Shown here: piece by piece, positions 9,345 through 32,884 of the stretch
How the letters are laid out: every line of letters starts with the position of its first letter
Numbering within the stretch: position 1 is the stretch's first letter
Assembly (NCBI GenBank): GCA_910589185.1
Contig: CAJUSU010000002.1
Location: 1,831 to 65,830, forward strand
DNA length: 64,000 nt
Direction of reading: 5' to 3'
Source: an uncultured Clostridia bacterium
GTDB lineage: Bacteria; Bacillota; Clostridia; TANB77; CAG-508
Translations under genes and position numbers: made by a program
The notes under the pieces: generated by a model
What the model was told of the DNA's origin: nothing
The model's input: only the letters and a program-made list of their open reading frames with translations
Database searches by the model: none

Positions 9345-9417
9345 CGTATGAATAACTTTAAAGAATTTTTGGAAATACCAAAAAAATAAATAATTGTATT
9401 TTTTGGGGGAAAGAATT

Positions 9418-11349: not shown

Positions 11350-14106
11350 ATGAAAAGAATAAGTGCTGAAAAAGAAATAACATATATATCAAATGTAATA
11401 GAAAAAAATATTGAATATTATGAACAAATAAAAGACAAGGGCTTTTTATCTGAGAATATTCTTGCTCAATTAAGGAATCTGATTGAAGATGTTGCAATAT
11501 TAATAAATAATAGAGAAAACAATCAAAGTTTAGATACGCAATATGAAAATGTATCACCATCTCTAGATTTTTTAAAAGGAAAGTCAAAGTATAAGTTCAT
11601 ATTAGATTTCTATAATTTTTTAAAAGGAACATCATCACATTATACACCAAGTGAAGATGGGGCAGAAAAGTTAGTAGCATATTATTTTAGATATATTTGT
11701 TTAACTAAGAAATTATTACATTCTGATTATAATATTGAAATAATAAAAAACATTGATAAATTTCCGATATATGACGATAAATCAATGAGAGAAAATTATG
11801 ATCTTATTTGTAATGTAGTTGAGAAAGAGAAAGATACTCCATCTAAATTCATAAAAGGGAAATTTTATGTACAAAAAGTTAATACTATTTATTCTAATGG
11901 AGATATATATTATGAAATAACATTATCCAAAGCAACTGATTATCAAAATAAATTTGAGCATATTACACTTTATTCTAAAAAATACATACCAAATAATTAT
12001 TCGGTGAATGTTTCAGTCTTAGACAAAGATGTTGATTTAAATATTGGAAAATCAAGAATAAAAATTATTAATGATTATAAGGTAGCAATTAGAATATGTG
12101 AATTAAAAAATATATTTTTATTCTTGGGAGGAAACAAACAATTTGGTGAAAGTTACAGAGAGTATAGAAACTTAATGGAATATTTAACTGATAGCCAAAA
12201 CACAATTACCAATATACTTTGTATGGATAATGAAAATTATATAAAGATAAAGAATAAACTTCAAGATGGAGCAGAAAATCACTATATTACAGAGATGTTT
12301 GACAAAATGAGAGATATTATAATAAATAATAAAAAAGGGCATAACATATTAAGATATTTTACTACTAATATGGAGAACATTGTAATTAGAGATCAGAAAG
12401 ACGATAACACTAATTTTGTGTTTCAAGACTTATACATATTACCTCAAAGTGGGATGTTTGATAGTATGCCGTATGCAATGTCCTTATATAAACATAATAT
12501 ATCATGGCAACATTTAGCTAAAGCAATTGATATGTATAATAAAGATGAAGAACTACTGTATAATCTTGTAAAAAATAATATTGAAAATGAAAATAAACTT
12601 TATACATCAACCAAGGATATTAATTATTTTGAAAATATTCCAGGTTTAATAGATAAATTTAATAAAAGGCTTCTAAATATAAAATCAAGAAGTAATAATT
12701 TATTAAAATTAGAAAATGAAATGATTTATATAGATTCTTACGAAAAAGATACAATTGAAATTATCTCATTAATAAAGAATTATTCAGAGACTTATAATGT
12801 AGACTTGAGAAACACAATTGATATATATAAGTTATTCGAATCCCAAGATGATGTTTCAAAAGATAAGGAAGATATTCTACAAAAAATATTTAGAACAAGT
12901 TCTGTTGCATTTATATATGGTCCTGCTGGAACAGGAAAGACAAAAATGATTGAAATATTATCGGCAGCATTTAAAAGTTACAATAAGTGCTTTCTTGCAA
13001 ATACAAATACAGCAGTAACTAATATGAAAACAAGGATAGGAAACATAGAAAATTCATTTTTTTTAACAATCTCTAATTATATAAGAAATAATTCAATTGA
13101 ATGTGATATTTTATTTATAGATGAATGCAGTATGGTAAGCAATGCAGATATGATTAAAATACTAAGAAAACAAAGATACCAAGCAATAATACTAGTAGGA
13201 GATATTTATCAGATAGAATCGATAAAGTATGGCAATTGGTTTCAATTTTGCAATAAGTATTTTAATGATGATATTGTTTATAATTTAAAGGATACCCATA
13301 GGACATCAGATATTGATTTGATGGAGTTATGGGAAAGTGTAAGATTTAATAATAAAAAGGCAATAAATATTTTAAGTAATCAGGAATACACTCAGCCATT
13401 ATCAAAAGAAATATTTGATAAAACTTCGTCTGATGAAGTTATATTATGTTTGAATTATGATGGGATGTATGGAATTAATAACATAAATAGAGTAAAACAG
13501 CAATTAAATCAAAATAAAGAATATAATTTTGGAATAGACACATATAAAGTGGATGATCCAATATTATTTAATGATTGTCCAAGATTTAATAATTTTCTTT
13601 ATAATAATTTAAAAGGAATTATAAAAAATATAGAAGAAGATAAAGATAATAATTGTATGTGGTTTACTATTGAAGTAGATAAAGACTCTATAAATGAATT
13701 TTTTAGACCATTTGACGTTGAAATTCTGGAGAGTGAAATTTTAGGAAAAGTAAATATTCGTTTTAAGGTAAATGAATATATAGATAAAGAAGATGATGAG
13801 AATGAATATGATCACATTATTCCTTTTAATTTATCTTATGCTATTTCTATACATAGAGCTCAAGGATTAGAATATGATAGTGTAAAGATTGTAATAACAT
13901 CTAACATAGAAGATAGAATTACAAAAAACATATTTTATACTGCAATAACTAGAGCAAAAAATAAATTGAAAATATATTGGAATTCAGATAGTCAAACTAA
14001 AATATTTGATAATTTTGATAAGAGAGAGAATAGTAGAGATTTATCAATATTAAGACAAAAAATAGATAAAAAGGAAGCAGATGAGAGCAAATTCAATGTT
14101 TTTTAA
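11350..14106 (+). CDS. SF1 (RecD/Dda-like) helicase with an unassigned ~500-aa N-terminal region
   Basis: Walker A FIYGPAGTGKT (nt ~12919), Walker B LFIDECSMV, and C-terminal SF1 motifs YAISIHRAQGLEYDSVKIV and FYTAITRAKNKLKIY. No motif recognised in the N-terminal half. Confidence 0.8.
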   Translation: MKRISAEKEITYISNVIEKNIEYYEQIKDKGFLSENILAQLRNLIEDVAILINNRENNQSLDTQYENVSPSLDFLKGKSKYKFILDFYNFLKGTSSHYTPSEDGAEKLVAYYFRYICLTKKLLHSDYNIEIIKNIDKFPIYDDKSMRENYDLICNVVEKEKDTPSKFIKGKFYVQKVNTIYSNGDIYYEITLSKATDYQNKFEHITLYSKKYIPNNYSVNVSVLDKDVDLNIGKSRIKIINDYKVAIRICELKNIFLFLGGNKQFGESYREYRNLMEYLTDSQNTITNILCMDNENYIKIKNKLQDGAENHYITEMFDKMRDIIINNKKGHNILRYFTTNMENIVIRDQKDDNTNFVFQDLYILPQSGMFDSMPYAMSLYKHNISWQHLAKAIDMYNKDEELLYNLVKNNIENENKLYTSTKDINYFENIPGLIDKFNKRLLNIKSRSNNLLKLENEMIYIDSYEKDTIEIISLIKNYSETYNVDLRNTIDIYKLFESQDDVSKDKEDILQKIFRTSSVAFIYGPAGTGKTKMIEILSAAFKSYNKCFLANTNTAVTNMKTRIGNIENSFFLTISNYIRNNSIECDILFIDECSMVSNADMIKILRKQRYQAIILVGDIYQIESIKYGNWFQFCNKYFNDDIVYNLKDTHRTSDIDLMELWESVRFNNKKAINILSNQEYTQPLSKEIFDKTSSDEVILCLNYDGMYGINNINRVKQQLNQNKEYNFGIDTYKVDDPILFNDCPRFNNFLYNNLKGIIKNIEEDKDNNCMWFTIEVDKDSINEFFRPFDVEILESEILGKVNIRFKVNEYIDKEDDENEYDHIIPFNLSYAISIHRAQGLEYDSVKIVITSNIEDRITKNIFYTAITRAKNKLKIYWNSDSQTKIFDNFDKRENSRDLSILRQKIDKKEADESKFNVF

Positions 14107-14136
14107 TTAAATTTATATAAAATATTTTTATAATCG

Positions 14137-14180
14137 AAAGTGCAATTTCTTGTTATTTAAAGTGCAAAAATTGCACTTTA
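14137..14180. promoter_or_regulatory. AAAGTGCAA operator-like sites: one half-site plus a 10-bp-arm palindrome upstream of the fic promoter
   Basis: aaagtgcaa at 14137-14145. Palindrome taaagtgcaa-aaa-ttgcacttta at 14158-14180. The same 9-mer arms recur inside fic at 15069-15077 and 15103-15111. Confidence 0.45.
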
Positions 14181-14184
14181 AATA

Positions 14185-14213
14185 TTGATATTATATCTTA
14201 TAATTGATATAAT
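14185..14213 (+). promoter_or_regulatory. Sigma-A type promoter for fic
   Basis: -35 TTGATA (14185-14190), 17-nt spacer, extended -10 TGaTATAAT (14205-14213). Lies 20 nt upstream of the fic start. Confidence 0.55.
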
Positions 14214-14233
14214 ATATATAGGAGGTATTTCTA

Positions 14234-15292
14234 ATGAATAAAAAGAAAAATTGGAATTTAGAATTATCAGAATATATTAAACAAGGTGAACCAAATCAAG
14301 TAGAGAAAACTAAAACATGGGAAACAGCAATTGGTTTGCAAGATGTTGATGGATTAAAACCTTCAAAATACTTAATAAAAACTGCTAAAGAACATATTGA
14401 AGGAACAATAGATATTGAAGAAGTCAAAGCAAGAATAGATGAATATTATGAAGTTCAAGGTAGCAGAAAAAAATTTGAAAAAGAAAATGAAGAAGCAGAT
14501 AAAGTTGCAGTAAGGATAACAGAAATATTAAGTGAAAAAGCATTTAATTTTTCACCAACAGAATTATTAAATATTCATAAAAGATTATTTAAAGATGTAT
14601 TTGATGGAGCAGGGGTATATAGAGATTATAATTTTACTAAAAAAGAATGGGTATTAAATGGAGATACAGTAATATATGCATCATTTGATACCATTAAAGA
14701 AACATTAGAATATGATTTTGAGCAAGAAAAAACCTTTTCATATAAAGGATTAAGCTTAGATGAATCAATCAAACATCTATGTAGATTCACATCAAATATT
14801 TGGCAAGTACATCCATTTTGCGAAGGAAATACAAGGACAACTGCAGTATTTATAATAAAATATTTAAGAACTTTTGGATTTAATATTAATGATGAAGTAT
14901 TTGCTGATAATTCATGGTATTTTAGAAACTCATTAGTAAGAGCTAATTACAAGAATTTTCAAAAAAATATATTTGAAGATACATCGTTTTTAGAAAAATT
15001 CTTTTATAACCTGCTAACAAATGCTAATAATGAATTAAAGAATAGATATACACATATAGATAATATTCAAAGTGCAAATGAAAATAATTTAAATGGCAAC
15101 AATTGCACTTTAGAAGAACAAGCAATTATAAACATATTAAAGAAAGATTCAGGTGCTATACAAGAAGAAATAGCAAAGCAAATAAATAAATCTGTTAGAA
15201 CTGTAAAAACATATATGGCAGAAATGCAAGAAAAAGGTTTAATTGAAAGAAAAAATGGTAAAAAGAATGGCGAATGGATAGTGAACGAGTAA
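14234..15292 (+). CDS. Fic/DOC family protein with a variant active-site motif and a C-terminal winged-helix domain
   Basis: Motif HPFCEGNTRTTA at nt 14810-14845, against canonical HxFx(D/E)GNGRxxR. The C-terminal ~70 aa (EEQAIINILKKDSGAIQEEIAKQINKSVRTVKTYMAEMQEKGLIERK) look like a wHTH domain. Confidence 0.8.
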   Translation: MNKKKNWNLELSEYIKQGEPNQVEKTKTWETAIGLQDVDGLKPSKYLIKTAKEHIEGTIDIEEVKARIDEYYEVQGSRKKFEKENEEADKVAVRITEILSEKAFNFSPTELLNIHKRLFKDVFDGAGVYRDYNFTKKEWVLNGDTVIYASFDTIKETLEYDFEQEKTFSYKGLSLDESIKHLCRFTSNIWQVHPFCEGNTRTTAVFIIKYLRTFGFNINDEVFADNSWYFRNSLVRANYKNFQKNIFEDTSFLEKFFYNLLTNANNELKNRYTHIDNIQSANENNLNGNNCTLEEQAIINILKKDSGAIQEEIAKQINKSVRTVKTYMAEMQEKGLIERKNGKKNGEWIVNE

Positions 15293-15317
15293 TAGTAAGT
15301 TATCGAGGTGTTAATAG

Positions 15318-16078
15318 ATGAAAGTATTACATATTGATATGGATTTCTTTTTGAATGAAAAAACTTCTTTTGAATCTCCTAGAGCATCTTCAGATTTTTA
15401 TTACCCTTGGAAAGAATGTGGTGTAATTAATTTTTTAGAAGAAAGATTAGGTTTAAACAAAAATAATAAAATAGAAGGGAGAATATATATAAAACATTAA
15501 GGGAGTTTTTATTTTTGAAAAGAACAAATAGAAAATAAAACATTAAAAATTCCTTTTGAAGTAATTCATATAGATTCACACATGGATTTGGGATTAGGTT
15601 ACGGAAGTTGGAGAATAATAATGGATGATCTTATTAGCAAGGATATGGATAAAAGGTTAATGTATATGAAAGAATAATCTTAAACCAAATGAAGGGGACT
15701 ACCTTCTCTATGCTATTTCCCTTCGTTTGGATTAGTAAATTAGTTCATGTTCCAAATATAAATGATAAGCAAAGAAATGATTATATTTTATATACTATGG
15801 AAAACTGTAAGGATGGAGCAGATAATATTCAATTATGCCATCATACTAGAGTATCATCTATTTTATTTAATGATATTTATGATAATGAAGTACAATTGCA
15901 AAAATATTATAAATATTGTATTTTTGAACCAAAAGTAAAATTTAATATAATTGACGCTAATAATGATTATTTACATAGTAGCTATGATTTTATTACTTTT
16001 GCTATATCTCCAAATTATACACCTAAAGAAGCGGATTTTATTATTAATATTATGAAAGAATACATTGATGAAATATAG
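15318..16078 (+). pseudogene. Decayed conserved hypothetical gene (possibly UPF0489-like)
   Basis: The frame starting MKVLHIDMDFFLNEK has in-frame TAA (15498-15500) and TGA (15516-15518). It then continues ...IPFEVIHIDSHMDLGLGYGSW.... A frameshift near 15670 joins it to the 15689-16078 ORF. Confidence 0.45.
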
Positions 16079-16178
16079 TTTTATAATCATATAAAAATTC
16101 CAATTTCTATAGATAAAAAAGTGTGAAAATGACTTTTAAGATAAAAAGTCATTTTCACACTTTTTATTTTAGATTGTT

Positions 16179-16475
16179 CTATTCCTCAAAACATCCCATA
16201 ACTAACTGAGCCCCATCCACAAATTCATTTCTATAATACTTCTCAGTAATATAAGTCAAATACCTCATAAAATCATCATAAAGAAGACTAAGTTGTTTCT
16301 GGGCATAAGTTCTATTCTGCTTAGGAATATTCTTCAAAATATTCTCCCTAAAAAAATCAAATTTAAAATTGTTTTCTCTATCTTGCTTATCTGCATAACA
16401 CAAATAAGTTTCTTCTCTAAAATCAAACTAGTCCTTCAAAATATCATTTTCATTTACTTCTCTAAAATTAACCAT
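16179..16475 (-). pseudogene. Small mobile-element-associated ORF downstream of tnpV, with an in-frame stop
   Basis: RBS TAGGAGG then ATG at 16475: MVNFREVNENDILKD*FDFREETYLCYADKQ...EKYYRNEFVDGAQLVMGCFEE. In-frame TAG at 16428-16430, consistent with TGG->TAG. Confidence 0.5.
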
Positions 16476-16487
16476 ATCTGATTCCTC

Positions 16488-16840
16488 CTATACATATAAA
16501 ATATCATTAAAAACAATTTCTTCAGCTCTATTTTAATATTATTCATAGCCTGAACCCACTCCATTTGATGATGTTCTTTTAAATTTTCATCAATATGTTC
16601 AACTTCAGCAAGTTGTTTTATGAGTTCATTCACTTTGTCAGTAGTATTTTCATCTATCTCAATTAAATGTTGTTTTTAAGTAACACTTATAAGTAATTCA
16701 GTATATAAACCCTTTTTATGTTCTTTAATAAAATGTAATCTTAAGCGACCATATTTTCCAATATGTTTTTCAGGTTGCTTAGGTAAATATAAGTCAGGAA
16801 TTAAATAATCTCCCTCTCTATGATAAGTAATTTCATTCAT
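16488..16840 (-). pseudogene. tnpV: TnpV-like transposon protein gene, decayed
   Basis: The reverse strand reads MNEITYHREGDYLIPDLYLPKQPEKHIGKYGRLRLHFIKEHKKGLYTELLIS..., the characteristic TnpV N-terminus, preceded by a GGAGG RBS. Nonsense TAA at 16676-16678. A 1-nt deletion in the A-run near 16531-16534 is needed to restore ...MNNIKNRAEEIVFNDILYV*. Confidence 0.7.
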
Positions 16841-17158
16841 TTTCAAAACCTCCAAATTATAAAAAATTAAAATGTCCCCAATTTATAAATGCTATTTTTG
16901 ACTTCTTGTGCGACAAGGTTTTTCAGACCTCGGGGACACAATGGGGACAAAAGCACCCAAAATTGAGCTAAAAACGCACAAAAGTTCTTAAAATAAAAAT
17001 AGCTATAAATGTTGATATTTAGATAAAAACTTAATTTTTCATTAAATTACAAAAAATGCTGCTTAAATTCTCATAACCCGAAGGACATAAGATTAAAGGA
17101 GTGGCTGAAAGTGTAAAAATTTAAGAAAAATGACGATAATATAAAATCAAAGTAATTG

Positions 17159-17187
17159 TTGAGAAAAAAGTCATTTTATGGTATAAA
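17159..17187 (+). promoter_or_regulatory. Candidate sigma-A promoter for the AEP-RT gene
   Basis: -35 TTGAGA (17159-17164), 17-nt spacer, extended -10 TGgTATAAA (17179-17187). About 70 nt upstream of ATG 17259. Confidence 0.4.
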
Positions 17188-17258
17188 CTATACTAAAGCT
17201 ACTAAAATAAAGAAAAAATAAGGTGAGTTGTGAAAGATAACTATAGAAAGGAATATAA

Positions 17259-20200
17259 ATGGAAGCAGCAGAAAAGATATATAGAGAAATATCAAAAGAA
17301 CTATTAAATACATTTTTTTACAATCGAAGAGTATTTGCAAAACAAGAAAAAGAAGATAGCGGAAAAGTAATATTTTTAACTAAATATCAAAGCATTGACA
17401 GTGTAAAAATAAAATATGCATTGCAAAATAAGCTTGCACTTATGACTTATCAACAAAATCAAAATAATTTAAGATGGGTTTGCTTAGATTTTGATATTCA
17501 AAAATGTGTGCAAAAAGAAAAGTACGATTTTTTGCAAGATATGCAATATAGAGAAAAGTTAATTGAAGATGTTGAAATTGCAATAAAAAAATTGAAAGAA
17601 TTAAATATTAATTATGTAATGGAATATTCGGGAAATAGAGGAATACATATTTGGATTTTCTTTGAAGAGGAAGTTAGTAAAGCTTTAGGATACACAATTA
17701 TAGAAAAAATATTAGAAAAAATAAAATTTAGATATACTTTTGTAGAAGACTCAGGAATTATGCTTGATAAATATCCTAAAAACGGAAATGCAGAAGGAAA
17801 TAGAATTGGATTAGGGGTAAAGATGCCTTTATCGTACCATCAAAAAAGTGAGTGTTATAGCTATATAATCGAAAAAACATCAGATATAAGAAGAATACAA
17901 GATTTAGACGTGGATTTCCTAAAATTTCAATTAGATATGTTAAGAAAAATAAAAAGGAATTCAGTCGATGCATTAATTAAAGTATTGAATATATCTAATA
18001 TTTTAAATTCAGAACAATTTAGTCGTATTAATGGAATGATAGAAAGAGAATATTCATTAGATGAAATCAAAAATATGCTAAAAAAGTCAAAGATATTTCA
18101 AAATATATTTAATAAGAGCAATCTATCAGAATACGAAAGAGATATATTAGTTGGAACACTAAGCCGAATAAGAAGTAGAAATAATCCAAGCTATGGAAAA
18201 GAGATTTTAAAAGACTTTTTTAAGACTTTAGATAACTATAACGAAGATATAACGACAAAAAAATTAGAAAAACTAGAAAATTTGTATCCCATTAAGATTG
18301 AAGAGATAGAGAAAAAATTAGGAATAAAATGCGAATATTGTAAAAAATATAAAATAAATAATACGATGGAATTAATTGATGGAATTGAGTTTGCTAGTTT
18401 TAATGAAAATAAAGTTTTGATTAATTGGGTTACCAAAGCAGAAATAGATTATTTAATAAATAATGATGAAGTTCCTTTAGAATTTATACAGAATAGATTA
18501 CAGAGATTAAAAGTAGACGAAATAGAGAAAAAAATAGAGAAAGTCAAAAAAGGAGAAGAACATCAAAGAATATTGCCATATAAGTATATACGTCATGAAA
18601 AAGAGAAGGATAGAATTTTATATTCTTATTCAGCTGAAGATAGAGTGATTTCAACTACCATTATGTTCTTAATAGATAATATTTTAGGAGGAGAGTACAC
18701 AAACAGTTCAAGTTATAGCTATAAAATAAATAGATATAAATATAAGAATTATAAAATATTCGAGCCATGGAATAACTTATGGATGAATTATAAGAAAGAT
18801 ATATCAGACAAAATTTACGATCCTAGTTATGATAATTATTATTTACTCAAGCTCGATTTAAGAAATTTTTATGATAGCATCAACCATATATTTTTAAGGG
18901 ACTATTTATATAATAGACCAACAGATAATATCAAGATGGTATTAAATAATATGGATTCAAAACAGAGAAATGAATATAAAAACTTATGTGAATTTTTGAT
19001 CCAATTATGTGAGTGTACAAATCCAGAACGTGGAGTGCCACAAGGACCAGCCTTTGCAAGATATTTAGCTGAGATATATATACACCAAATTGATTTACTT
19101 ATAAAAGCAGAAATAAATGAATATACTGAATTTTATTATAGATATGTTGATGATATTGTGATTTTAGTGGAAGATGGAGAAAAGGCTAAGAATATACTAA
19201 AAAAGATCACTGATAAATTAAAAGTATTAGATTTAGAAATGAACTATAAAAAGCAAATATTTGGGCAGGTAAAAGATATAAAATATGAAGTTATAAGTGA
19301 TGATATTGAAAAATACTTTATAGATGGAATTGAAGAAGAAACACCACAATTTATAAAAAATAAAGCTAAGTATATTTTGCAAAATATGTTTGAAAAGATT
19401 AAAAAAGATGAAAATGGAGAGTTAGATTATAAAAATATTCCATTCTTTCTTACTCATTTAATGGATGAAAAATATATAGAAACAAATAAAGAGGATATTA
19501 TTAAGTGCATTACTAATGCTAATATAGGTAGAGGAAGTATGTATAAGCATTTTTACAACAATATTATATTCAGAAATAATATTGAAGATTTAGGGTTCTA
19601 TGAGAAAATAGAGGGATTGTCTAGAGCTAATTTTATTGATGCACTACTAAAAAATTCTTATAGAGTAGAAAAATATATCTTACAGAAAATATATAATGAT
19701 TACATAGAAATAGGAGACCTACAAGAGTACGAAAAAATTGAACTATATATGTTAGCACTTCAAAATAATCTTACTTTCAATGAAAAGAAGATAGACTATA
19801 AGCTATTGCTAGATTGTATAAAATATACAAGTAAATTAAATTTAAATCAATCTATATTACATAACATATTAATAGAAATACAAAAAAACGACAACAAAGA
19901 AGAAAGATTAAAAGTTTTAGAAGAAATTCTTGGTAAGGCTGAAAGGATTGAGAGGATTGATGAATTTATTGATACTGTAGTATCAACAATAGAGCAAATT
20001 GATAATAACAAAGGTGTAAAAGTAGAAAATATGCAGGTACTATATAATTTAATTGCTTTTGCTACCTTATATCTAAATAATACACAAAAAGTAAGACAGA
20101 TATGGGAAGTATTACTAGATCAATATAATGAGCAGACATTAAATAAAAATGAATGGTATCGATATAGAGGAGTAATGTTGCAACATAAATATAATGACAG

Positions 20201-22445
20201 TACTATAATATCATTTTTAACAAGTGAATTATCAGGAGAAAATATAGTAGAAAATGAAGAAATTTCATATATAGAGTTAATGTATATAGCAAGTTTAATA
20301 ATTTATATATCCAAAATTGATATTGAAAATAAAATTCTTAATAATGAAGATTTAAAAGAAGCAATTAAGAAAATTGCTGAACAGAAGAATATGCTTATAT
20401 TAAAGTGGTGTATTGATGGGAATACAGAGTATTTTCCGAATAAAGAAATTGCATTATTAAATAGTCAATACAATGACAGAATAGTCATGATATGCAATAG
20501 GAATCAGTTATTAGTACGAGGGAGAAAAGAGATATTCGGGGACTCAAAAATCCAAAAAGAAGAATGTTGCATAGATGGAGAAGAGAGATTTTTTAAGATA
20601 TATAAAATAGATTCTCCTTTAGCAGATATATATCAAGTGCTGGATGGAAAAAACTTTTTTGAAGCATTAAAGTTGTTAGAAAATATTTTTTATGAAATTG
20701 AGAAAGAAACATTAGTTAATATTTTTGAAAAGGGAAGTATCGATTGTTTAGGAAAAGTAAAATATCAATATTCAAAATATGATAAAGTTTTTGTAGTAGA
20801 TGAAAGAATGATAAGCGAAAAGAGGATGGAGGAGATCTCAAGAATTATTATAGAGAAAATTTTACAACAAAATAAACTAGAGCCTTTCAAATATGAGTAT
20901 GGTAGAATTATTGAGTCTAATAATATATGCAGAGAATTTGTACCTAATATACTAAAAAGTTATTATGAGAAAATAGAATTTTTAATTGAATTGAATAAAA
21001 ATATAGAAGAAATACCGATAAATATGAGAAATAATGATTATGAAATTGAAAAAGCGAAAATACTCACATTAAAAAATTCTAAAATAGAAGTACTAAAAGA
21101 TAGAGAGGATTATGCTAGTAATTATAAAATTCTTAAATTATATAATACATTTAAAAATAGTAATACAGACAAAATTTTGTATGGAAAGGTGAAAGTTAAA
21201 GAGAATAATTTATTTGATGTAATTGACACTTTGAAAAATAGTATTTCTATGAATATAGACCATGATATAATAAAAAGTATACTAGAACAATTAGATAAAG
21301 ATTTAAATAATATAGAAGAAATAATAAAAATAGAAAGTAATCAAATTCAAAAAGTAACCTTTGAAACTAGTGAAGATGAAGAAACGAATAATATATTCAT
21401 TAATAAGACAAAATATAATATTAATGAATTAAGAATAATTGAATTTGGAAAGAAAGAAGGCATTGTAGGATTAAGTGAGAAAGATATCTTAAAACTAGCA
21501 ACTAGAAAATATACTTTTTTTGCAGAAAAGAATATTATTATATTGCCAGAATTTATAGAGAAGGTCTTAGAAATAATAAAAAATAAAGAAGATATATATG
21601 ATTCTAATAATATACTAAAAGAGGAACAACTAGGAAATAGCGCGTATTATAAACAAGCTATAAAAAATATAGAAATGCAAAATGACATATCAAAAGAAGA
21701 AGCAGAAAAGAAATTAAAGATGTTTTTAAGAAAATATGATTCTAAGTATTATGATGCAATAATAGAGCTAATTTCTAAATATAAAATTATAGATGAAGAA
21801 GATAGAAAAAATTTTATAAAGGAGCTAAAAAAATATTTAGATGATAATAATTATGTAGTTTGTTCCCTCAAAAATTATATTAATGACAGGAACGGACTGG
21901 ATTGTATCTTAAGAAAGGAAAAAGGGTTTGATAGAAGTGAAAGATATGCTAAACGATTGAGATTAAATTTATGTGAGAAAGAAGATAGTACGAAAGAAAA
22001 GATTGTTATAGTATCAGACATAGGAATAAGTGGAGGTCAAGCGAAAAAGAGACTAAATGATTGTAAAGTAAATTTAGCAAAATATAAAGAAGTGATATTT
22101 TTAAATTGCATATATACTGATAAATATAAAGAAAACATGACAAAAGAATGGAAGGAGTTAAAGATAAAATTTAAGGGTAGAGAGATAAAATCAAGCCAAT
22201 ATATGTATAATAAGTTGCATAATAAGTCTAAAGTAAGATTAGAAGAATTTTTTCAAGAAGAAGAAAATAGAAAAATATTAGAATTGAAAATGCCATTTAA
22301 CGAAAAGGTGACTTATAGACGATATATTCAAGAGATAGAAAAAGAAGATACTATAAATATATTATTAGGAAGATTTAAAAGTATGCCAAAACCTCATCAT
22401 ATTATATTTGATGATACTATCTTTAAGTATAGAAAAGATAAGTAA
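17259..22445 (+). CDS. Giant multidomain protein (1,728 aa): N-terminal AEP primase-polymerase domain, reverse transcriptase domain, long unassigned C-terminal region
   Basis: AEP motifs: WVCLDFDI (DxD, nt 17487-17495), YSGNRGIHIW (nt 17628-), and LDKYP...GVKMPLSYHQKS. RT motifs: DRILYSYSAEDRVISTTIMF (RT1/2, nt ~18600), YLLKLDLRNFYDSINH (motif A, nt ~18841), RGVPQGPAFARYLAEIY (motif B, nt ~19031), YRYVDDIVILV (YxDD, nt ~19141), and AKNILKKITDKLKVLDLEMNYKK. Near the C-terminus is KIVIVSDIGISGGQAKK (nt ~21996-22050), which is PRTase-loop-like. Confidence 0.85.
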   Translation: MEAAEKIYREISKELLNTFFYNRRVFAKQEKEDSGKVIFLTKYQSIDSVKIKYALQNKLALMTYQQNQNNLRWVCLDFDIQKCVQKEKYDFLQDMQYREKLIEDVEIAIKKLKELNINYVMEYSGNRGIHIWIFFEEEVSKALGYTIIEKILEKIKFRYTFVEDSGIMLDKYPKNGNAEGNRIGLGVKMPLSYHQKSECYSYIIEKTSDIRRIQDLDVDFLKFQLDMLRKIKRNSVDALIKVLNISNILNSEQFSRINGMIEREYSLDEIKNMLKKSKIFQNIFNKSNLSEYERDILVGTLSRIRSRNNPSYGKEILKDFFKTLDNYNEDITTKKLEKLENLYPIKIEEIEKKLGIKCEYCKKYKINNTMELIDGIEFASFNENKVLINWVTKAEIDYLINNDEVPLEFIQNRLQRLKVDEIEKKIEKVKKGEEHQRILPYKYIRHEKEKDRILYSYSAEDRVISTTIMFLIDNILGGEYTNSSSYSYKINRYKYKNYKIFEPWNNLWMNYKKDISDKIYDPSYDNYYLLKLDLRNFYDSINHIFLRDYLYNRPTDNIKMVLNNMDSKQRNEYKNLCEFLIQLCECTNPERGVPQGPAFARYLAEIYIHQIDLLIKAEINEYTEFYYRYVDDIVILVEDGEKAKNILKKITDKLKVLDLEMNYKKQIFGQVKDIKYEVISDDIEKYFIDGIEEETPQFIKNKAKYILQNMFEKIKKDENGELDYKNIPFFLTHLMDEKYIETNKEDIIKCITNANIGRGSMYKHFYNNIIFRNNIEDLGFYEKIEGLSRANFIDALLKNSYRVEKYILQKIYNDYIEIGDLQEYEKIELYMLALQNNLTFNEKKIDYKLLLDCIKYTSKLNLNQSILHNILIEIQKNDNKEERLKVLEEILGKAERIERIDEFIDTVVSTIEQIDNNKGVKVENMQVLYNLIAFATLYLNNTQKVRQIWEVLLDQYNEQTLNKNEWYRYRGVMLQHKYNDSTIISFLTSELSGENIVENEEISYIELMYIASLIIYISKIDIENKILNNEDLKEAIKKIAEQKNMLILKWCIDGNTEYFPNKEIALLNSQYNDRIVMICNRNQLLVRGRKEIFGDSKIQKEECCIDGEERFFKIYKIDSPLADIYQVLDGKNFFEALKLLENIFYEIEKETLVNIFEKGSIDCLGKVKYQYSKYDKVFVVDERMISEKRMEEISRIIIEKILQQNKLEPFKYEYGRIIESNNICREFVPNILKSYYEKIEFLIELNKNIEEIPINMRNNDYEIEKAKILTLKNSKIEVLKDREDYASNYKILKLYNTFKNSNTDKILYGKVKVKENNLFDVIDTLKNSISMNIDHDIIKSILEQLDKDLNNIEEIIKIESNQIQKVTFETSEDEETNNIFINKTKYNINELRIIEFGKKEGIVGLSEKDILKLATRKYTFFAEKNIIILPEFIEKVLEIIKNKEDIYDSNNILKEEQLGNSAYYKQAIKNIEMQNDISKEEAEKKLKMFLRKYDSKYYDAIIELISKYKIIDEEDRKNFIKELKKYLDDNNYVVCSLKNYINDRNGLDCILRKEKGFDRSERYAKRLRLNLCEKEDSTKEKIVIVSDIGISGGQAKKRLNDCKVNLAKYKEVIFLNCIYTDKYKENMTKEWKELKIKFKGREIKSSQYMYNKLHNKSKVRLEEFFQEEENRKILELKMPFNEKVTYRRYIQEIEKEDTINILLGRFKSMPKPHHIIFDDTIFKYRKDK

Positions 22446-22458
22446 TAAGGAGCTAACA

Positions 22459-23043
22459 TTGGAAGAACAAAAACTAAACTATCTTTACGCACAATGTCTA
22501 AATGAACTGATATTCATAGGAATTGATATAAAGAATCAAGAGTTAATAGGAAATATTGACATCAAACTAACAAAAAGAGCAAGCAAAAGATATGGATGTT
22601 GTAAACAGGAAAATCCAGATAAAAAATATAAAATCATACAAAAGAGAGGACATCATAAAATAATCAAATATGAAAAATTTCAGAGCCATCATATTGAGAT
22701 TAGTAATTGGGTTATGAAATTAAACGATGATATCATCAAAAATACAATTATGCATGAACTAATACATTGTATTCCATTTTGCAATAACCATGGAAAAGAA
22801 TTCAAAAAATATGCTAACTATATTAATGAAAAATTAGATTATCATATTACTACAAAAGGAAATATAGAGGAAGATTATAAAGCAAGCCAGCTAGAATATG
22901 TAGAAGTAAATGACTACAAATATAAAATTCAATGTGAAAATTGTGGTCAAGTTATTTACCGAAAAAGATTTAATCCTAGCTTGATAAAAAGATATCGTTG
23001 TGGAAAATGTAAGGGAAAGCTAAAATTAGTAGAAGCAAAATAG
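22459..23043 (+). CDS. SprT-like zinc metalloprotease with a C-terminal zinc ribbon
   Basis: AAGGAG RBS (22447-22452) then TTG at 22459, 14 nt after the RT stop (the track start at 22408 overlaps the RT gene). Motifs RASKRYGCCK and HExxH in IMHELIHCIPFCNNHGKEF. Zinc ribbon CENCGQ...RYRCGKCKGKL. Confidence 0.75.
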   Translation: MEEQKLNYLYAQCLNELIFIGIDIKNQELIGNIDIKLTKRASKRYGCCKQENPDKKYKIIQKRGHHKIIKYEKFQSHHIEISNWVMKLNDDIIKNTIMHELIHCIPFCNNHGKEFKKYANYINEKLDYHITTKGNIEEDYKASQLEYVEVNDYKYKIQCENCGQVIYRKRFNPSLIKRYRCGKCKGKLKLVEAK

Positions 23044-23078
23044 CAAGGGTAGAAGAAAATATGCTCTTGCTATTTTTT
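23041..23078 (+). terminator. Terminator closing the RT-SprT unit
   Basis: Stem tagcaag (23041-23047) with cttgcta (23066-23072), followed by TTTTTT. Confidence 0.55.
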
Positions 23079-23314
23079 GAAAAAATTTTGATAAGAATAA
23101 ACTTTTGATAAAATTTGATTAGGGTACTTATCTATTAACATAATTATAACACTAAAGCAAGGTCGAAATTTGTAGAAATCGGTCAACAGACTGCAAAAAG
23201 GTAAAAAACATAATAAATACTATAACGAACATTAAAAAACTTGTCAAAAAAAGTAGAAAATTGACGAAAAGAAGCGAGGGAACAAACTAAATGAAATAAA
23301 ATTTGCAAAAGTGC

Positions 23315-23343
23315 TTGCAAAAGGAAATACAATTCGTTACAAT
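23315..23343 (+). promoter_or_regulatory. Candidate sigma-A promoter for comM
   Basis: -35 TTGCAA (23315-23320), 17-nt spacer, -10 TACAAT (23338-23343). Confidence 0.4.
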
Positions 23344-23412
23344 AACATTATTATTTCAATTGATTTATTTCAAAAAATTATTTCGAAAAACAATCCAAAG
23401 GAGAAATTTAAA

Positions 23413-24951
23413 ATGTTATCTATTACAAAATCTATGACCTTGCATGGACTACAAGGCTTTTTAATTGACGTGCAAGTAGATGTTTCAGCAGGAATGCCAG
23501 CATGGGATGTTGTGGGGCTCCCAGATATTAGTGTAAGAGAAGCTAAAGAAAGAGTTAGGACAGCTATTAAAAATTCAGGCTATGAGTTACTTAGTAGGAA
23601 AATTGTAGTTAACTTAGCACCAGCAGATATTAAAAAAGAAGGATCCACTTTTGATTTGCCAATTGCAGTTGGTATATTAATGAGTTTAGAAATCATCTAT
23701 GGCAAAGGAAATCAAGACACTTTATTAATAGGAGAACTATCTTTAAATGGAAACCTTAATCCAATTGAAGGTGCATTACCAATTTGTATTGAAGCTAAAA
23801 AGTTAGGAATTAAGAAAGTAATTTTACCACAAGCAAATGCAAAAGAAGCGTCCATCATAGAAGGGATAGAAATACTAGGAGCCTATGACTTAACAGAAGT
23901 AGTAAACTATTTTAATGGAGATAGCAAAATACAAAGTTATCATACAGACTGGAAAGAATGTACAAAGAATAGGCAACAAGAGTCATTAGACTTTGCAGAT
24001 GTCAAAGGACAAGAAAATGTTAAAAGAGCAGTAGAGGTTGCTGCTGCAGGAGGACATAATTGTTTACTTATTCGGAAGCCCAGGTTCCCGGAAAAACAAT
24101 GATAGCTAAAAGAATCCCATCCATATTACCAGATTTGAGTTTCGAAGAAGCTTTAGAAATTACTAAAATTCATAGTATAGCAGGAATTTTAAAATCAGAA
24201 ATTCCAATCATTACAACTAGACCATTTCGTTCACCTCATCATACTATCTCAGCCACCTCATTAATAGGAGGTGGAAGAATTCCAAAACCAGGAGAAATTA
24301 GTTTATCCCATTATGGTGTTTTATTCTTAGACGAACTCCCAGAATTTAATCAACATACTTTAGAAGTCCTGCGAGGACCATTAGAAGATGGAACAGTTAC
24401 AATTAGTAGAGTAAATGCTAGCTTTACATATCCTTGTGAGTTTATGTTTGTTGCATCCATGAATCCATGTCCTTGCGGATATTATGGTTCACCAGATAAA
24501 GAATGTTCTTGCAATCCGCAAACAATCAGTAAATATATGGGAAAGATAAGTCGGACCTTTATTAGATAGAATTGATATTCAAATAGAAGTAAGCCCTGTC
24601 AAATATGAAAAATTAGGAAAAGAAGAAAAAACAGAAACCTCACAAGAAATTAAGAAAAGAGTAAACCAAGCAAGAGAGACTCAGAGGAAGAGATATAAGG
24701 AAGAAGCAATTTTCTCTAACGCAGCACTAACTCCAAAGCTAATGGAAAAATATTGCAAATTAGATGAAGAGAGCAAGAAAATACTAGAAATGGCTTTTGA
24801 AAAATTAGGACTTAGTGCTAGAGCTTATGGACGTATTTTAAAAGTAGCAAGGACCATTGCGGATTTAGCAAGTTCAGAGCAAATACAAAAAAATCACATA
24901 GCAGAAGCTATACAATATAGAAGTTTAGATAAAAAATATAGGAGGAATTAG
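23413..24951 (+). pseudogene. comM: ComM/YifB Mg-chelatase-like ATPase, frame broken three times
   Basis: AAGGAGA RBS then ATG 23413 (MLSITKSMTLHGLQGFLIDVQVDVS...). Track ORFs 23311-24102, 24060-24569 and 24742-24951 are consecutive pieces of one gene. Removing single C residues at 24073, 24087-24089 and 24552 restores ...[18 protein letters not shown]... (Walker A) and ...[16 protein letters not shown]..., giving 511 aa. Confidence 0.9.
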
Positions 24952-24990
24952 TGTCAGATTGGGAACGTTCCTTTTTCTGACACTTTTGTC
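24951..24990 (+). terminator. Terminator after comM
   Basis: Stem gtgtcaga (24951-24958) with tctgacac (24976-24983), enclosing the ggaacgttcc palindrome, followed by TTTTG. Confidence 0.55.
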
Positions 24991-25025
24991 AGGTTGGGGA
25001 CACACCTTATAGCACGAAAAAGAAA

Positions 25026-25871
25026 ATGAAAGTTATCATACAAAAAGACGAAAACTATCCAAAGCGATTATTACAAATACAAAATCCACCAAAAAAATTA
25101 TATGTAGAAGGAAACGAAAAGTTATTAAATCAAGATGCCATAGCAATAGTTGGCACAAGAAATTGTACTAAATATGGTGAAAAATGTGCTAGCAAATTTG
25201 CAAGAGAATTATCTAAAAAAGGAATATGCATTGTCAGTGGACTAGCCAGAGGCATTGATTCCACTGCACATATGAATTCCATGGAGCAAGAAGGAAAAAC
25301 AATTGCAGTATTAGGAAGTGGATTTAACCATATTTATCCTAAAGAAAACCAATATTTATACCAAAAAATTATAGAAAACGGTGGATGTATTGTGACAGAA
25401 TATCCACCAGAAACACCAGTAGACAAAGCAAAATTTCCTAAGAGAAATCGAATTATTAGTGGCTTAGCTATGGGGGTATTAATTATAGAAGCAAGATATA
25501 GAAGTGGGACATCTATTACGGCAAAATATGCAATGAGTCAGCACAAAGAGGTATTCTGCATACCACATCCATTAGACACTCCAACAGGATATATACCAAA
25601 CCTATTCATTCAGCAAGGGGCTCAATTAGTTACATCAGGAAGTGATATTTTACAATATTATAGCGAAGACGATAAATATCAAAACCAAGAAGTAGCAGAA
25701 GAATACGAAGAAATCTATAACTTAATTGGGCAATTACCAATTTCAGCTAACAATATTGCTCAAATACAACAAATAGATATTGCAAAAGTAACTGAAAGTT
25801 TATTTATGTTGGAATTAGACGGCTTTATTAAGCAATTACCAGGGAATGTGTATATTAGAAATAATAAATAA
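25026..25871 (+). CDS. dprA: DNA-processing protein DprA
   Basis: Rossmann-like DprA core: AIVGTRNCTKYG, VSGLARGIDSTAH, FPKRNRIISGLA. A winged-helix-like C-terminal domain follows. Confidence 0.9.
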   Translation: MKVIIQKDENYPKRLLQIQNPPKKLYVEGNEKLLNQDAIAIVGTRNCTKYGEKCASKFARELSKKGICIVSGLARGIDSTAHMNSMEQEGKTIAVLGSGFNHIYPKENQYLYQKIIENGGCIVTEYPPETPVDKAKFPKRNRIISGLAMGVLIIEARYRSGTSITAKYAMSQHKEVFCIPHPLDTPTGYIPNLFIQQGAQLVTSGSDILQYYSEDDKYQNQEVAEEYEEIYNLIGQLPISANNIAQIQQIDIAKVTESLFMLELDGFIKQLPGNVYIRNNK

Positions 25872-25892
25872 AATTAAAAAAGGAGTGAGACG

Positions 25893-26246
25893 ATGTATGC
25901 AAGACATGAAATAGGAAAAGAAGGAGAAGAAGAAGCAACAAAATATTTAGAAAGGCAAGGCTATCAAATTGTGCAAAGAAATTTTTCATGCAGACAAGGA
26001 GAAATAGATATTATTGCAAAAGACAAGAAAGAATATGTTTTTATTGAAGTAAAGACAAGACAAAATAGGCATTATGGTATGCCATGCGAAGCAGTTGATG
26101 AAAGAAAACAAAAGCATATCTGGAATGCCACAAAATATTATTTACATATTTATAAATTAGAAAATCAATATATTCGATTTGATGTGATAGAGGTGTATAA
26201 GAAAAAAGGTGAGTTTTTTATTCATCATATTAAGCAGATAATGTGA
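25893..26246 (+). CDS. yraN: YraN family (UPF0102) endonuclease-like protein
   Basis: 117 aa. GEEEATKYLERQGYQIVQRNFSCRQGEIDIIAKD...FIEVKTR is the signature of UPF0102/YraN. Confidence 0.85.
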   Translation: MYARHEIGKEGEEEATKYLERQGYQIVQRNFSCRQGEIDIIAKDKKEYVFIEVKTRQNRHYGMPCEAVDERKQKHIWNATKYYLHIYKLENQYIRFDVIEVYKKKGEFFIHHIKQIM

Positions 26247-26395
26247 TTCTAAAAATGTAAAACATTTCGACAAAATATGAAGACAAAACAAAAATAATAT
26301 GATAGAATTAAACCGCAAAATTCATAAATAAAAGTATTATTTTTACCTAAAGGATAATGAAATCAAAAAGTAAAAGAACAAGAAAGGAGGAAAAA

Positions 26396-27116
26396 ATGCG
26401 TTATCAACTAACATTTGAATTAAACAATGAAAAATTTCCATTGGATTACAGAAGAACCATTATGAGTTACATCAAAAATGCTTTATCGCAACATGACAAA
26501 GATACTTATCAAAAATATTATCATGACAAAGATCCTATTGTAAAACCATTTACTTTTTCAGTGTATTTTAACAGTCCAATATTTGAAAAAGAAACTATTA
26601 TCATTAAAGATCACACAATTAAACTCAATCTTTCCATTCAAGACTATTCTCTAGCTATTATCTTATACAATAGCATCAATCACCAAAGAAATATTCCATT
26701 TCCAATTGCAAATAATAATATGACTTTAAAAAATATTACTATGATACCAGAAGATGAAATTGCAACAAATCAAATTACAATTAAATTTATGTCACCACTT
26801 GTAGTACGTGAAAGAAAAGCGCAAAAAGACTGGTATTACTTCTATAGTGAAGAAAGTAAATTTCAAGAAGTTTTAAAACAGAATTTAAAAGAGCAATTAT
26901 CCATTAGTAAAATTCCACTAGAAACAATAGAGAATTTTGAAATACGAGCAATACAACCAAAGAAAACAATTATCCAATTTTATGAAAAGAAAATAGAAGC
27001 ATCTGTAGGTACTTATGTTTTAAAAGGCGATAAAGACTTGCTTAAATTTCTCTATCAATGTGGTATGCGGAAGCAAGCACTCAGCAGGATTCGGAATGTT
27101 TTCAATTATCAAGTAA
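26396..27116 (+). pseudogene. cas6: Cas6 (type I-B crRNA endoribonuclease), frameshifted near the 3' end
   Basis: AAAGGAGG RBS then ATG 26396. As written, the frame runs on to 27154 and loses the glycine-rich motif. Deleting C27068 gives ...LYQCGMGSKHSAGFGMFSIIK* (canonical Cas6 GxGxxxSxGFG end) with stop at 27114-27116, just before the cas8b RBS. Restored length 239 aa. Confidence 0.85.
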
Positions 27117-27128
27117 AGGAGGTGCCAA

Positions 27129-28994: not shown

Positions 28995-29049
28995 AAAAGG
29001 AAAGGAGCAAGAGAATTCTAGGAGATAAAAGAATTCTCAAATAGAGATT

Positions 29050-29955: not shown

Positions 29956-29970
29956 AAAGGGGGAAATGGT

Positions 29971-30618: not shown

Positions 30619-30632
30619 TGCTTCTCAAAATA

Positions 30633-30684
30633 AAAAACTGCTTTAAGTATTACTGATACAATACCAAGCAGTTTTTATTTTTCT
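30633..30684 (+). terminator. Hairpin terminator between cas5 and cas3
   Basis: Stem aaaaactgctt (30633-30643) with aagcagttttt (30666-30676), followed by ATTTTT. Confidence 0.6.
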
Positions 30685-30700
30685 AAAAAAGGAGAAAAAT

Positions 30701-32869: not shown

Positions 32870-32884
32870 AAAGGAGATAAAAAA

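Follow-up and report, generated by a model that had tools for sequence, protein, structure and literature searches.

UG10-large, also known as DRT7 or PPRT, is a Class 1 UG/Abi defence reverse transcriptase that was named and validated in 2022 (PMC9226505), and its mechanism was described in 2025-26 (10.64898/2026.02.16.706125; 10.64898/2026.04.18.719102). In the Escherichia coli enzyme, the reverse transcriptase (RT) produces poly(dT) in a Tyr-primed, protein-templated reaction, the primase domain copies or extends this product into poly(dA), and a covalent protein-DNA conjugate is formed (10.64898/2026.02.16.706125; 10.64898/2026.04.18.719102). The anti-phage activity of the E. coli enzymes depends on both active sites, that of the RT and that of the primase, and the enzymes synthesize poly(dT)/poly(dA) linked to protein (PMC9226505; 10.64898/2026.02.16.706125; 10.64898/2026.04.18.719102); E. 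coli DRT7 needs no second gene to defend (PMC9226505; 10.64898/2026.04.18.719102). An exonuclease activity and a role in oxidative damage have also been reported for E. coli PPRT (Lambowitz preprint, PMC12439943), and a description of DRT7 as "defence only" may be incomplete.

The window analysed here is a 64,000-nucleotide stretch of DNA from an uncultured Clostridia bacterium. Positions 17259-22445 of its forward strand hold a primase-reverse transcriptase gene that is real and intact, reading from ATG through 1,728 codons with no interruption. The original prediction of a single reading frame with both AEP primase-polymerase and RT motif sets was borne out, each motif lying where it had been placed. 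By profile search both folds are significant, with Pfam RVT_1 matching aa 520-676 (56.6 bits, E 3.7e-15) and Pfam AEP-TOTE matching aa 38-217 (E 3.6e-14). The novelty claimed for the system did not hold, since the protein is a full-length member of UG10-large/DRT7, a named and validated group (PMC9226505) that is defined by this very AEP-RT fusion. The PADLOC profile RT_UG10_large (PDLC03746) covers the protein in one unbroken stretch (aa 8-1727 against profile positions 2-1686 of 1688; 1233 bits, E=0) that takes in the C-terminal ~1,000 aa of the 1728-aa protein, and the best-scoring RT profile in PADLOC is of the UG/Abi type, not a Cas-associated RT. Homologues share 26-68% identity with the protein, and identity to the studied E. 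coli-type DRT7 is ~23% over the whole length and falls to 17-18% in alpha-Rep and MID. The gene very probably encodes a divergent Clostridia representative of the DRT7 group of single-gene anti-phage systems (UG10-large, Class 1 UG/Abi, PPRT), with a SprT gene downstream that has no specific functional link to it. Searched by sequence against the PDB, the whole protein matched only CAPP Prim-Pols and DRT2, with no DRT7 entry. For a Class 1 RT the absence of an ncRNA is expected, and an Rfam scan of 15000-23500 found none, its sole match being a spurious sub-threshold mir-122 on a hairpin at 16117-16164.

To relate the protein to published residues, an Erwinia homologue (1776 aa) served as a numbering proxy for E. 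coli DRT7; it is usable as such because all 20/20 named E. coli DRT7 residues are found in it at identical numbers. Aligned in this way, 17 of the 20 named residues are identical in the window protein, namely the DxD, the motif A Asp, Y538, YVDD, the priming Tyr, four Arg, D689, H733, N491 and F501. These represent all of the named catalytic, priming and thymine-pocket positions of PrimPol, RT and alpha-Rep, and across 22 homologues their columns vary little or not at all. None of the three MID DNA contacts of E. coli DRT7 (N1399, T1401 and S1435) is kept. Since these poly(dT) contacts are not conserved, the length or sequence of the product, its regulation and its trigger may differ from those in E. 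coli.

The AEP primase-polymerase (PP/PriS) domain spans aa 1-248 (17259-18002) and is identified by Pfam AEP-TOTE. Its catalytic DxD is D77/D79 (LDFDI, aa 76-80), equivalent to D68/D70 of E. coli DRT7, in columns that are invariant among homologues. Motif II reads SGNRGIH at aa 124-130 (within SGNRGIHIW, 124-132), the motif III region corresponds to D170, and GVKMPLSYHQKS follows at aa 186-197; in the alignment of homologues, S124, G125, R127, G128, H130 and D170 are invariant. Against the PDB, the domain matches the CRISPR-associated Prim-Pol entries 7NQF and 7NQD (E 7e-11). A putative PriL-CTD-like (PP-CTD) linker domain comes next at aa 249-384 (18003-18410), the stretch earlier described as PriCT-like. 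Within the UG10_large match it aligns to residues 240-381 of E. coli DRT7 at 27% identity, and its borders were transferred by alignment from the published E. coli domain borders (10.64898/2026.04.18.719102).

The RT fingers and palm occupy aa 385-670 (18411-19268), as placed by Pfam RVT_1 and residue mapping. In motif A (LDLRNFYDSI, 532-541), D533 and Y538 correspond to D526 and Y531 of E. coli DRT7; the RT GVPQGPAFARYLAEIY is found at aa 592-607, and YVDD at 629-632 corresponds to 624-627. The thymine-pocket residues R445, R452, R601 and R758 are equivalent to R440, R447, R595 and R750 and lie in invariant columns, and a 13-sequence alignment is likewise invariant at the RT catalytic and pocket columns (D533, Y538, YVDD, R445, R452, R601). 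An alpha-helical repeat (alpha-Rep) domain at aa 671-1018 (19269-20312) stands in place of a thumb. It contains the predicted priming residue Tyr686 (19314-19316), equivalent to Y682 of E. coli DRT7 and invariant in 13/13 sequences and also in A1, together with the conserved D689, H733 and R758 (D685, H725 and R750 in E. coli). The MID/arch domain (aa 1019-1454; 20313-21620) lies within the UG10_large profile match at 18% identity to the Erwinia/E. coli-type protein, and the C-terminal domain (aa 1455-1728; 21621-22442) completes the chain.

Within the C-terminal domain, an alpha/beta module at ~aa 1530-1690 (21846-22328) looks phosphoribosyltransferase (PRTase)-like, with a modelled fold resembling that of the type I enzymes. 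The PRPP-binding loop consists of four hydrophobic residues, two acidic residues and xxTGxT at a strand-to-helix junction. A PRPP-loop-like KIVIVSDIGISGGQ occurs at aa 1581-1594 (21999-22040), and the motif IVIVSDIGISGGQ spans strand, loop and helix in an AF2 model, with Ser at the first acidic position and Gln at the last Thr. For both AF2 models of the domain (pLDDT 86.9 for the first and 72.1 for the second), the best 50 Foldseek matches in the PDB were all type I phosphoribosyltransferases, the best of them with a probability of 1.0 and an E value of only 3e-3 over a core of ~65 aa. Pfam PRTase-CE matched 6 of 15 homologous segments, the segment from the window scoring 26.1 bits against a cutoff of 27. 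Foldseek and Pfam PRTase-CE are in line with the PRTase-like loop that had been noticed near the C-terminus, and the signal was seen only with these two; when the C-terminal domain was searched against the PDB by phmmer and by profile, chance-level matches alone came up (AcaB, BLUF). The C-terminal module of E. coli DRT7 was left unresolved by cryo-EM, the DRT7 papers compared make no mention of a PRTase-like module, and a literature search on PRTase-CE/TOTE found nothing relevant. The module could offer a testable lead on DRT7 regulation or nucleotide sensing.

The biochemistry and defence phenotype proposed for the window protein would be those of the E. coli DRT7 papers. By this analogy, the RT-like domain would begin by joining dTMP to Tyr686 of the alpha-Rep domain. 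The poly(dT) strand would then be extended without a nucleic-acid template, thymine being chosen by the pocket of R445, R452, R601 and R758. A phage trigger may next displace the arch/MID and C-terminal domains, upon which the N-terminal AEP could make poly(dA) with poly(dT) serving as template and primer. The resulting protein-linked A/T duplex-like DNA would lead to abortive infection. A nucleic-acid-synthesizing immune protein in a defence island, as had been foreseen, is supported, and the suggested coupling of AEP and RT activities through second-strand synthesis agrees with what was demonstrated for E. coli DRT7 (10.64898/2026.02.16.706125; 10.64898/2026.04.18.719102). This very divergent Firmicutes protein (~23% identity) has lost none of the catalytic, priming or thymine-pocket residues, which speaks for the E. 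coli mechanism being a general one.

The borders of the cassette were set by DNA comparison with two relatives (L017 and L018) and with a locus that contains an RT homologue (L009). Positions 16163-17097 are 89.6% identical to L017, and homology stops at ~17097, where a cassette-specific upstream region begins (17098-17258, forward strand). This region has a promoter-like site, recognized by eye, consisting of TTGAGA (17159-17164), a 17-nt spacer and TGgTATAAA ending at 17187, and the ribosome-binding site (RBS) of the RT, GAAAGGAA, at about 17246-17253. At the other border, RT homology with L009 ends exactly at the stop codon. The cassette (~17098-22446) comprises its own promoter region and one gene only, and it occupies a defence slot of variable content, with a Fic gene on one side and SprT on the other. 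In L017, whose DNA is ~90% identical, the slot is filled not by the RT cassette but by an MkoA-like helicase-DUF2726 protein and ArsC; farther upstream, a bSEFIR protein lies between Fic and the tnpV remnant. The decayed tnpV to the left of the cassette (16480-16850, reverse strand) has an in-frame stop and is common to the RT-less relative; the gene fragments called in identical loci match Pfam TnpV. Defence families assigned by PADLOC around the RT are GmrSD/HEC-05, PDC-S53, PDC-S72, type I R-M and CRISPR-Cas. The defence island of the original prediction stands with respect to type I R-M, GmrSD, Fic and the decayed tnpV, but not its "AbiJ remnant" (15318-16078), for which there is no Pfam or PADLOC match.

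The gene for a SprT-like zinc metalloprotease of 194 aa (22459-23043, forward strand) lies directly behind the RT. It has its own AAGGAG RBS (22448-22453) and TTG start, as predicted, and the start follows the RT stop codon by 13 nt rather than the 14 nt first given. The protein matches Pfam SprT-like (PF10263; 40.3 bits against a cutoff of 25.6), with HELIH at aa 99-103 and CxxC...CxxC at aa 159-186 (pairs at 159-162 and 181-184), while scoring below the cutoff for Zn_ribbon_SprT (17.2 against 28.1) and well below that for the NCBIfam SprT equivalog (29 against 113 bits). The HExxH protease is followed by a terminator, also as described: folding reveals an intrinsic terminator-like hairpin and U-run at 23037-23076 on the forward strand (-17.6 kcal/mol, z -4.74; 0/200 shuffles fold as well), which would end the RT-SprT transcription unit. 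Neither this terminator nor the RT promoter-like site was reported by a consensus promoter/terminator scan. Folding found no structure between RT and SprT (z -0.5), and no terminator separates them. The exact RT protein is carried by 15 contigs, in all of which the RT-SprT arrangement is identical. Since the pair is fixed in these contigs and lacks an intervening terminator, local co-expression is likely, and at this locus transcripts from the RT promoter probably run on into SprT. A SprT match of 99% identity with a Helicase_C Pfam flag (P0092) was considered as a strain with a different upstream gene and rejected; its locus, L176, proved to be this RT-SprT locus again, interrupted by an internal gap of 162 bp.

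Such an arrangement invites the reading of a two-gene system, with the SprT-like protease as a dedicated partner of the AEP-RT that releases or resets a Tyr-DNA adduct or acts as the effector. The short gap without a terminator, the terminator directly 3' of SprT and the recurrence in 15/15 contigs all speak for it, although these contigs represent one lineage and therefore count as one event. Covalent protein-DNA conjugates, of which DRT7 makes one, are the substrate class of Spartan/SprT-type proteases. The partnership was nevertheless not upheld when conservation of the gene neighbourhood was checked across genomes. A six-frame hmmsearch found SprT near none of 79 UG10 loci, Pfam SprT-like matched 0/63 ORFs downstream of UG10 loci, and SprT was downstream of none of the three closest RT homologues (P0001, P0002 and P0003); the ORFs 3' of UG10-large loci differ from one another in family and size and in how far away they lie. 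Conversely, the RT was found at none of ~50 SprT-orthologue loci from ~50 Clostridia species, in ~20 of which SprT sits in a conserved SprT-ComM-DprA-YraN block. The genes upstream of these orthologues are unrelated (type I R-M with HATPase, cas genes, or ArsC), and RT-less relatives have natively the same SprT RBS with TTG or GTG as start codon. Equivalent searches returned at least 740 homologues for SprT and 26 for the RT. Homology to the L009 RT stops exactly at the stop codon, E. coli DRT7 defends alone (PMC9226505), and a two-gene system is very unlikely. SprT belongs to a lineage-specific Clostridia orthologue group and, as junction mapping and its synteny show, is a resident core-genome gene at the edge of the variable slot, not part of the DRT7 system. 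Still less probable is a lineage-specific two-component DRT7 variant in which read-through SprT would clear DRT7-Tyr-DNA conjugates and so limit autoimmunity or reset the enzyme; each of the comparative tests speaks against a conserved link. A literature search joining SprT, reverse transcriptase and defence found nothing relevant. Novelty had been made to depend on the pair not falling within a characterised DRT group that has the same partner gene; the RT does fall within a characterised DRT group, and with no SprT partner the second part of that condition does not come into play. The locus illustrates how two genes may be taken for a "system" falsely, on nothing more than close spacing and likely co-transcription; SprT is here the fixed right border of a defence-gene swap site.

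Two further readings concern the RT protein itself. A type I-B CRISPR-Cas locus lies ~4 kb downstream (block 26312-35525, with cas6/cas8b starting at 26357), and the protein could be a CRISPR-associated RT/Prim-Pol (CAPP/CART-like) that serves it as an adaptation factor. The closest solved AEP relatives being CRISPR-associated Prim-Pols would fit with such a role, as would an NCBIfam PrimPol_Msp match; however, that match reaches 99 bits against a cutoff of 200, the full-length UG10_large match extends over alpha-Rep, arch and C-terminal regions absent from CAPPs (~1,000 aa), and the best RT profile is UG/Abi. Four conserved housekeeping genes (SprT, ComM, DprA and YraN) separate the RT from the cas genes, and the RT cassette and CRISPR-Cas block are independent insertions relative to L017, leaving an adaptation factor as the least probable of the alternatives. 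There is a slim chance, comparable to that of the two-gene system, that the gene is a decayed or inactive relic or an enzyme mainly for DNA-damage tolerance, as partly proposed for E. coli PPRT. Decay is visible in the neighbouring tnpV, in the fragmented ComM nearby and in the nearest homologue (L009), which is frameshifted near aa 161, and a damage role would be in line with the oxidative-damage phenotype and exonuclease activity in PMC12439943. Yet the 5.2-kb ORF has stayed intact in DNA of ~25% GC, a composition in which stop codons form readily, none of the catalytic and priming residues has been lost, and the gene sits among the PADLOC defence families named above.

Among known systems, the SprT of the window resembles bacterial SprT and eukaryotic Spartan-Wss1 in its HExxH zincin core and C-terminal zinc ribbon, and departs from bacterial SprT in scoring well below the NCBIfam equivalog cutoffs. 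The RT protein shares its AEP catalytic core with the CRISPR-associated Prim-Pols but differs from them in domain order, in partners, in having no cas1 link and in its sub-cutoff NCBIfam score. The Class 1 Abi RTs AbiK, Abi-P2 and AbiA, unlike the window protein, are without an AEP primase, an arch, a C-terminal domain and second-strand synthesis. UG10-small systems, such as Streptococcus salivarius UG10S with its arch protein, probably have the same AEP/PriL-CTD/RT/alpha-Rep core, and PADLOC RT_UG10_small matches aa 5-774 of the window protein at 367 bits. In UG10-small the arch is encoded on its own, by an overlapping ORF of 850-1040 aa that lies downstream, whereas here it is fused and the ORF downstream is the unrelated 194-aa SprT. 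From DRT7/UG10-large (PPRT) of E. coli SC366 and LN97, the window protein differs in sequence (~23% identity), in its host, a low-GC uncultured gut Clostridia rather than a gamma-proteobacterium, and in the MID poly(dT) contacts. With that same enzyme it has in common the order of AEP PrimPol, a putative PriL-CTD, thumb-less RT, alpha-Rep, arch/MID and C-terminal domains, the length class (1728 aa here, 1776 aa there), the DxD, motif A Asp, YVDD, priming Tyr, four-arginine pocket and further DNA contacts, and its organization as a single-gene cassette in a defence island.

The original prediction described a giant AEP primase-reverse transcriptase (RT) fusion followed by a SprT-like protease gene, in DNA with a GC content of roughly 25-30%. 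An uninterrupted open reading frame (ORF) of 1728 amino acids occupies positions 17259-22445 of the forward strand and contains Pfam AEP-TOTE (residues 38-217, E 3.6e-14) and RVT_1 (residues 520-676, E 3.7e-15) domains. The SprT ORF follows at 22459-23043, its realistic start being the TTG at 22459, which is preceded by AAGGAG (22448-22453) and lies 13 nt beyond the stop of the large ORF; the product scores 40.3 bits against Pfam SprT-like (cutoff 25.6). At 23037-23076, a 15-bp hairpin with a U-run behind it is a credible terminator, as folding bears out (-17.6 kcal/mol, z -4.7), and no comparable hairpin was found between the two genes. Since the ORFs, the Pfam domains, the terminator and every quoted motif were found where expected, the observation itself is confirmed.

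The defence island around the RT gene is real. A type I restriction-modification (R-M) operon comprises hsdM (280-1848), a PDC-M36A-like ORF of 502 amino acids (2746-4254) between hsdM and hsdS, hsdS (4273-5490), hsdR (5515-8598) and, directly after hsdR, a YgjP-like zinc peptidase gene (8619-9344). GmrSD/HEC-05 follows (9394-11214), as do two candidate defence genes encoding a 918-residue SF1 helicase (11350-14106; PADLOC PDC-S53, full length, 937 bits) and a Fic-HTH protein (14234-15292; PADLOC PDC-S72, 419 bits). A tnpV remnant with an in-frame stop lies on the reverse strand at about 16480-16850, and type I-B CRISPR-Cas genes begin with Cas6 at 26357 and continue with Cas8b from 27129 onward. 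The R-M, GmrSD, Fic and decayed tnpV context had been read correctly; the supposed AbiJ remnant, at 15318-16078, consists of two small ORFs (60 and 129 amino acids), lying between Fic and a hairpin at 16117-16164, with no Pfam or PADLOC match. Short CRISPR-like arrays at 35256-35418, 40687-41109 and 41342-41504 have a common repeat of about 30 nt, ATTTTAATGTAAATATATTAGAATTTAAAG. The 9.2-kb block with the cas genes (26312-35525) is missing from L017, a relative of about 90% identity that lacks the RT and jumps from 26312 to 35525. The competence gene comM (Mg-chelatase-like, 23311-24951) is broken into three ORFs of 263, 169 and 69 amino acids and is split the same way in L017 and two other loci (L010, L178), either as a conserved pseudogene or through a recoding event.

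The proposed coupling of AEP and RT activities stands, but its novelty does not, as it is already established for a named and characterised group, UG10-large/DRT7, whose PADLOC profile the protein matches end to end. A single RT_UG10_large match (1233 bits, E=0) runs through residues 8-1727 and covers positions 2-1686 of the 1688 in the profile. Judged by its sequence, the protein is a new, divergent member of this family. UG10 is DRT7, a Class 1 UG/Abi defence RT.

The N-terminal PriS/AEP domain of UG10 was described by Mestre et al. (2022, PMC9226505), who found a C-terminal region of about 800 residues fused in UG10-large and separately encoded in UG10-small, protection against T2 and ZL-19, and loss of that protection upon mutating the RT's catalytic domain. 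A functional primase domain is also needed, according to a passage of Figiel et al. (10.64898/2026.02.16.706125) that cites Mestre et al. 2022. The same 2026 preprint resolves primase, PriL-CTD, RT, alpha-Rep and 'arch' domains and shows the primase copying RT-made, protein-primed poly(dT) into poly(dA). Song et al. (2026 preprint, 10.64898/2026.04.18.719102) report abortive infection, priming on Y682, thymine selection that needs no nucleic-acid template and is made by R440, R447, R595 and R750, and an iterative hand-off between RT and primase yielding palindromic poly(A)/poly(T) DNA. The same protein goes by the name PPRT in a preprint of 2025 (PMC12439943), which adds exonuclease and oxidative-damage roles.

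SprT had been proposed as a functional partner of the RT, yet four independent tests (frequency, RT neighbourhoods, SprT neighbourhoods and junction mapping) speak against this, and the link is an accident of position. Word-indexed searches of the same kind returned only 26 homologues for the RT (best 68%, 54% and 53% identity) but 740 for SprT, of which many share 60-91% identity. Conservation of the pair as neighbours fails from both sides. The RT homologue of 54% identity (P0003) is followed by AAA_15/RloB and that of 53% (P0002) by ORFs of 57 and 260 amino acids. At 79 UG10 loci from species-representative genomes, a six-frame search with a SprT-orthologue HMM gave no match, and Pfam SprT-like was hit by none of the 63 ORFs lying downstream; these ORFs are heterogeneous, with YhcG, AAA_15/RloB, McrBC and transposases among the families, and UG10-small loci carry the expected overlapping arch ORF of 850-1040 amino acids. 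Conversely, some 50 uncultured gut Clostridia species have the SprT orthologue, at identities from 87% to 54%; none of them has the RT within 8 kb of it, and about 20 keep the order SprT-ComM-DprA-YraN found in the window. The content upstream of SprT varies, with type I R-M and a HATPase protein in L010, cas3/cas4/cas1/cas2 in L013, and a deaminase with ArsC in L012; in L018 and L022 SprT has the same TAAGGAG ribosome-binding site, a GTG or TTG start and no RT.

The junctions point the same way. Homology to the nearest RT homologue (L009:401-5601; 76% nucleotide, 68-77% amino acid identity) stops exactly at the stop codon, and the 187 bp beyond it hold no SprT. This homologue is split near residue 161 by a frameshift, so that it is a pseudogene or else misassembled. 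L017 and the window, at about 90% DNA identity, have three segments in common: Fic at 14102-15285, the tnpV remnant at 16163-17097, and SprT through YraN at 22492-26312. In place of window positions 17098 to ~22458, L017 encodes ArsC and an MkoA-like SF1 helicase whose C-terminal domain is DUF2726; its whole Fic-to-SprT slot (L017:2342-7992) holds, further left, a bSEFIR (TIR/SEFIR) protein, then the shared tnpV remnant, the helicase and ArsC. The SprT neighbourhoods and junctions together show that the RT cassette (~17098-22446) has no gene other than that of the RT, preceded by an upstream region of its own, and the content of the L017 slot shows the site to be a defence-gene exchange hotspot with SprT as its fixed right-hand border. 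The exact RT protein is found on 15 contigs, flanked in the same way on each; as these are one lineage, they count as one event. The orf129 region and the tnpV remnant are separated by a perfect 20-bp inverted repeat (16117-16164) that resembles a terminator on either strand, and its right arm is where L017 homology resumes (16163).

A remark on a phosphoribosyltransferase (PRTase)-like loop near the C-terminus was borne out by AF2 models, Foldseek and Pfam PRTase-CE, which place a PRTase-like module at 21846-22328 (residues ~1530-1690). The model of residues 1440-1728 (pLDDT 86.9, pTM 0.84) gave type I PRTases as all of its best 50 PDB matches (E 0.016 or weaker, probability up to 0.99). The model of residues 1527-1728 (pLDDT 72) again gave only PRTases in the top 50 (best E 3e-3, probability 1.0, a core of ~65 residues at 2.5 Å). 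Of 15 homologous segments, 6 are hit by Pfam PRTase-CE (best E 7.8e-7); the segment from the window scores 26.1 bits, below the cutoff of 27. The motif KIVIVSDIGISGGQ (residues 1581-1594, positions 21999-22040) spans strand, loop and helix, like a PRPP loop, and would be a degenerate PRPP loop of the module (IVIVSDIGISGGQ); its D1587, G1592 and Q1594 are conserved across the family. Because these statistics are modest, a type I PRTase fold is graded no higher than likely. By position within the C-terminal domain, the module appears to be the counterpart of E. coli 'module 5' (residues 1528-1681), invisible in the cryo-EM map (Figiel et al., 10.64898/2026.02.16.706125); a PRTase fold goes unmentioned in the three DRT7 papers considered.

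Because a sequence search of the PDB copy gave no DRT7 chain, a 1776-residue Erwinia persicina homologue (L127) served as numbering proxy; in it, all 20 residues singled out in E. coli SC366 DRT7 occur under precisely their published numbers. Borders transferred by alignment are PP (1-248), PriL-CTD (249-384), RT (385-670), alpha-Rep (671-1018), MID (1019-1454) and CTD (1455-1728). The 'PriCT-like stretch' of the original prediction would therefore be PriL-CTD, and its ~1,000 unassigned residues correspond to alpha-Rep, arch/MID and the C-terminal domain. The window protein belongs to DRT7 and, in a 13-sequence alignment, is identical at 17/20 named residues: D68/D70 (D77/D79 in the window), R440/R447/R595/R750 (R445/R452/R601/R758), N485 (N491), F494 (F501), D526 (D533), Y531 (Y538), YVDD 624-627 (629-632), the priming Y682 (Y686), D685 (D689) and H725 (H733). 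All 17 matching columns are invariant or nearly so in a 22-sequence family alignment.

By homology with the E. coli work on chemistry, trigger and phenotype, Y686 would prime poly(dT) synthesis at the active site of the RT, where the pocket of four arginines would serve as 'template', while the arch/MID and C-terminal domains would keep the primase in check until a cue from a phage. The AEP domain would then make poly(dA) on the poly(dT), and the protein-linked, duplex-like A/T DNA would lead to abortive infection. Compared with the enterobacterial type, the MID-domain contacts N1399, T1401 and S1435 are not conserved in the window protein, and identity is about 23% overall, 17-18% in alpha-Rep and MID, and 33% in the RT domain.
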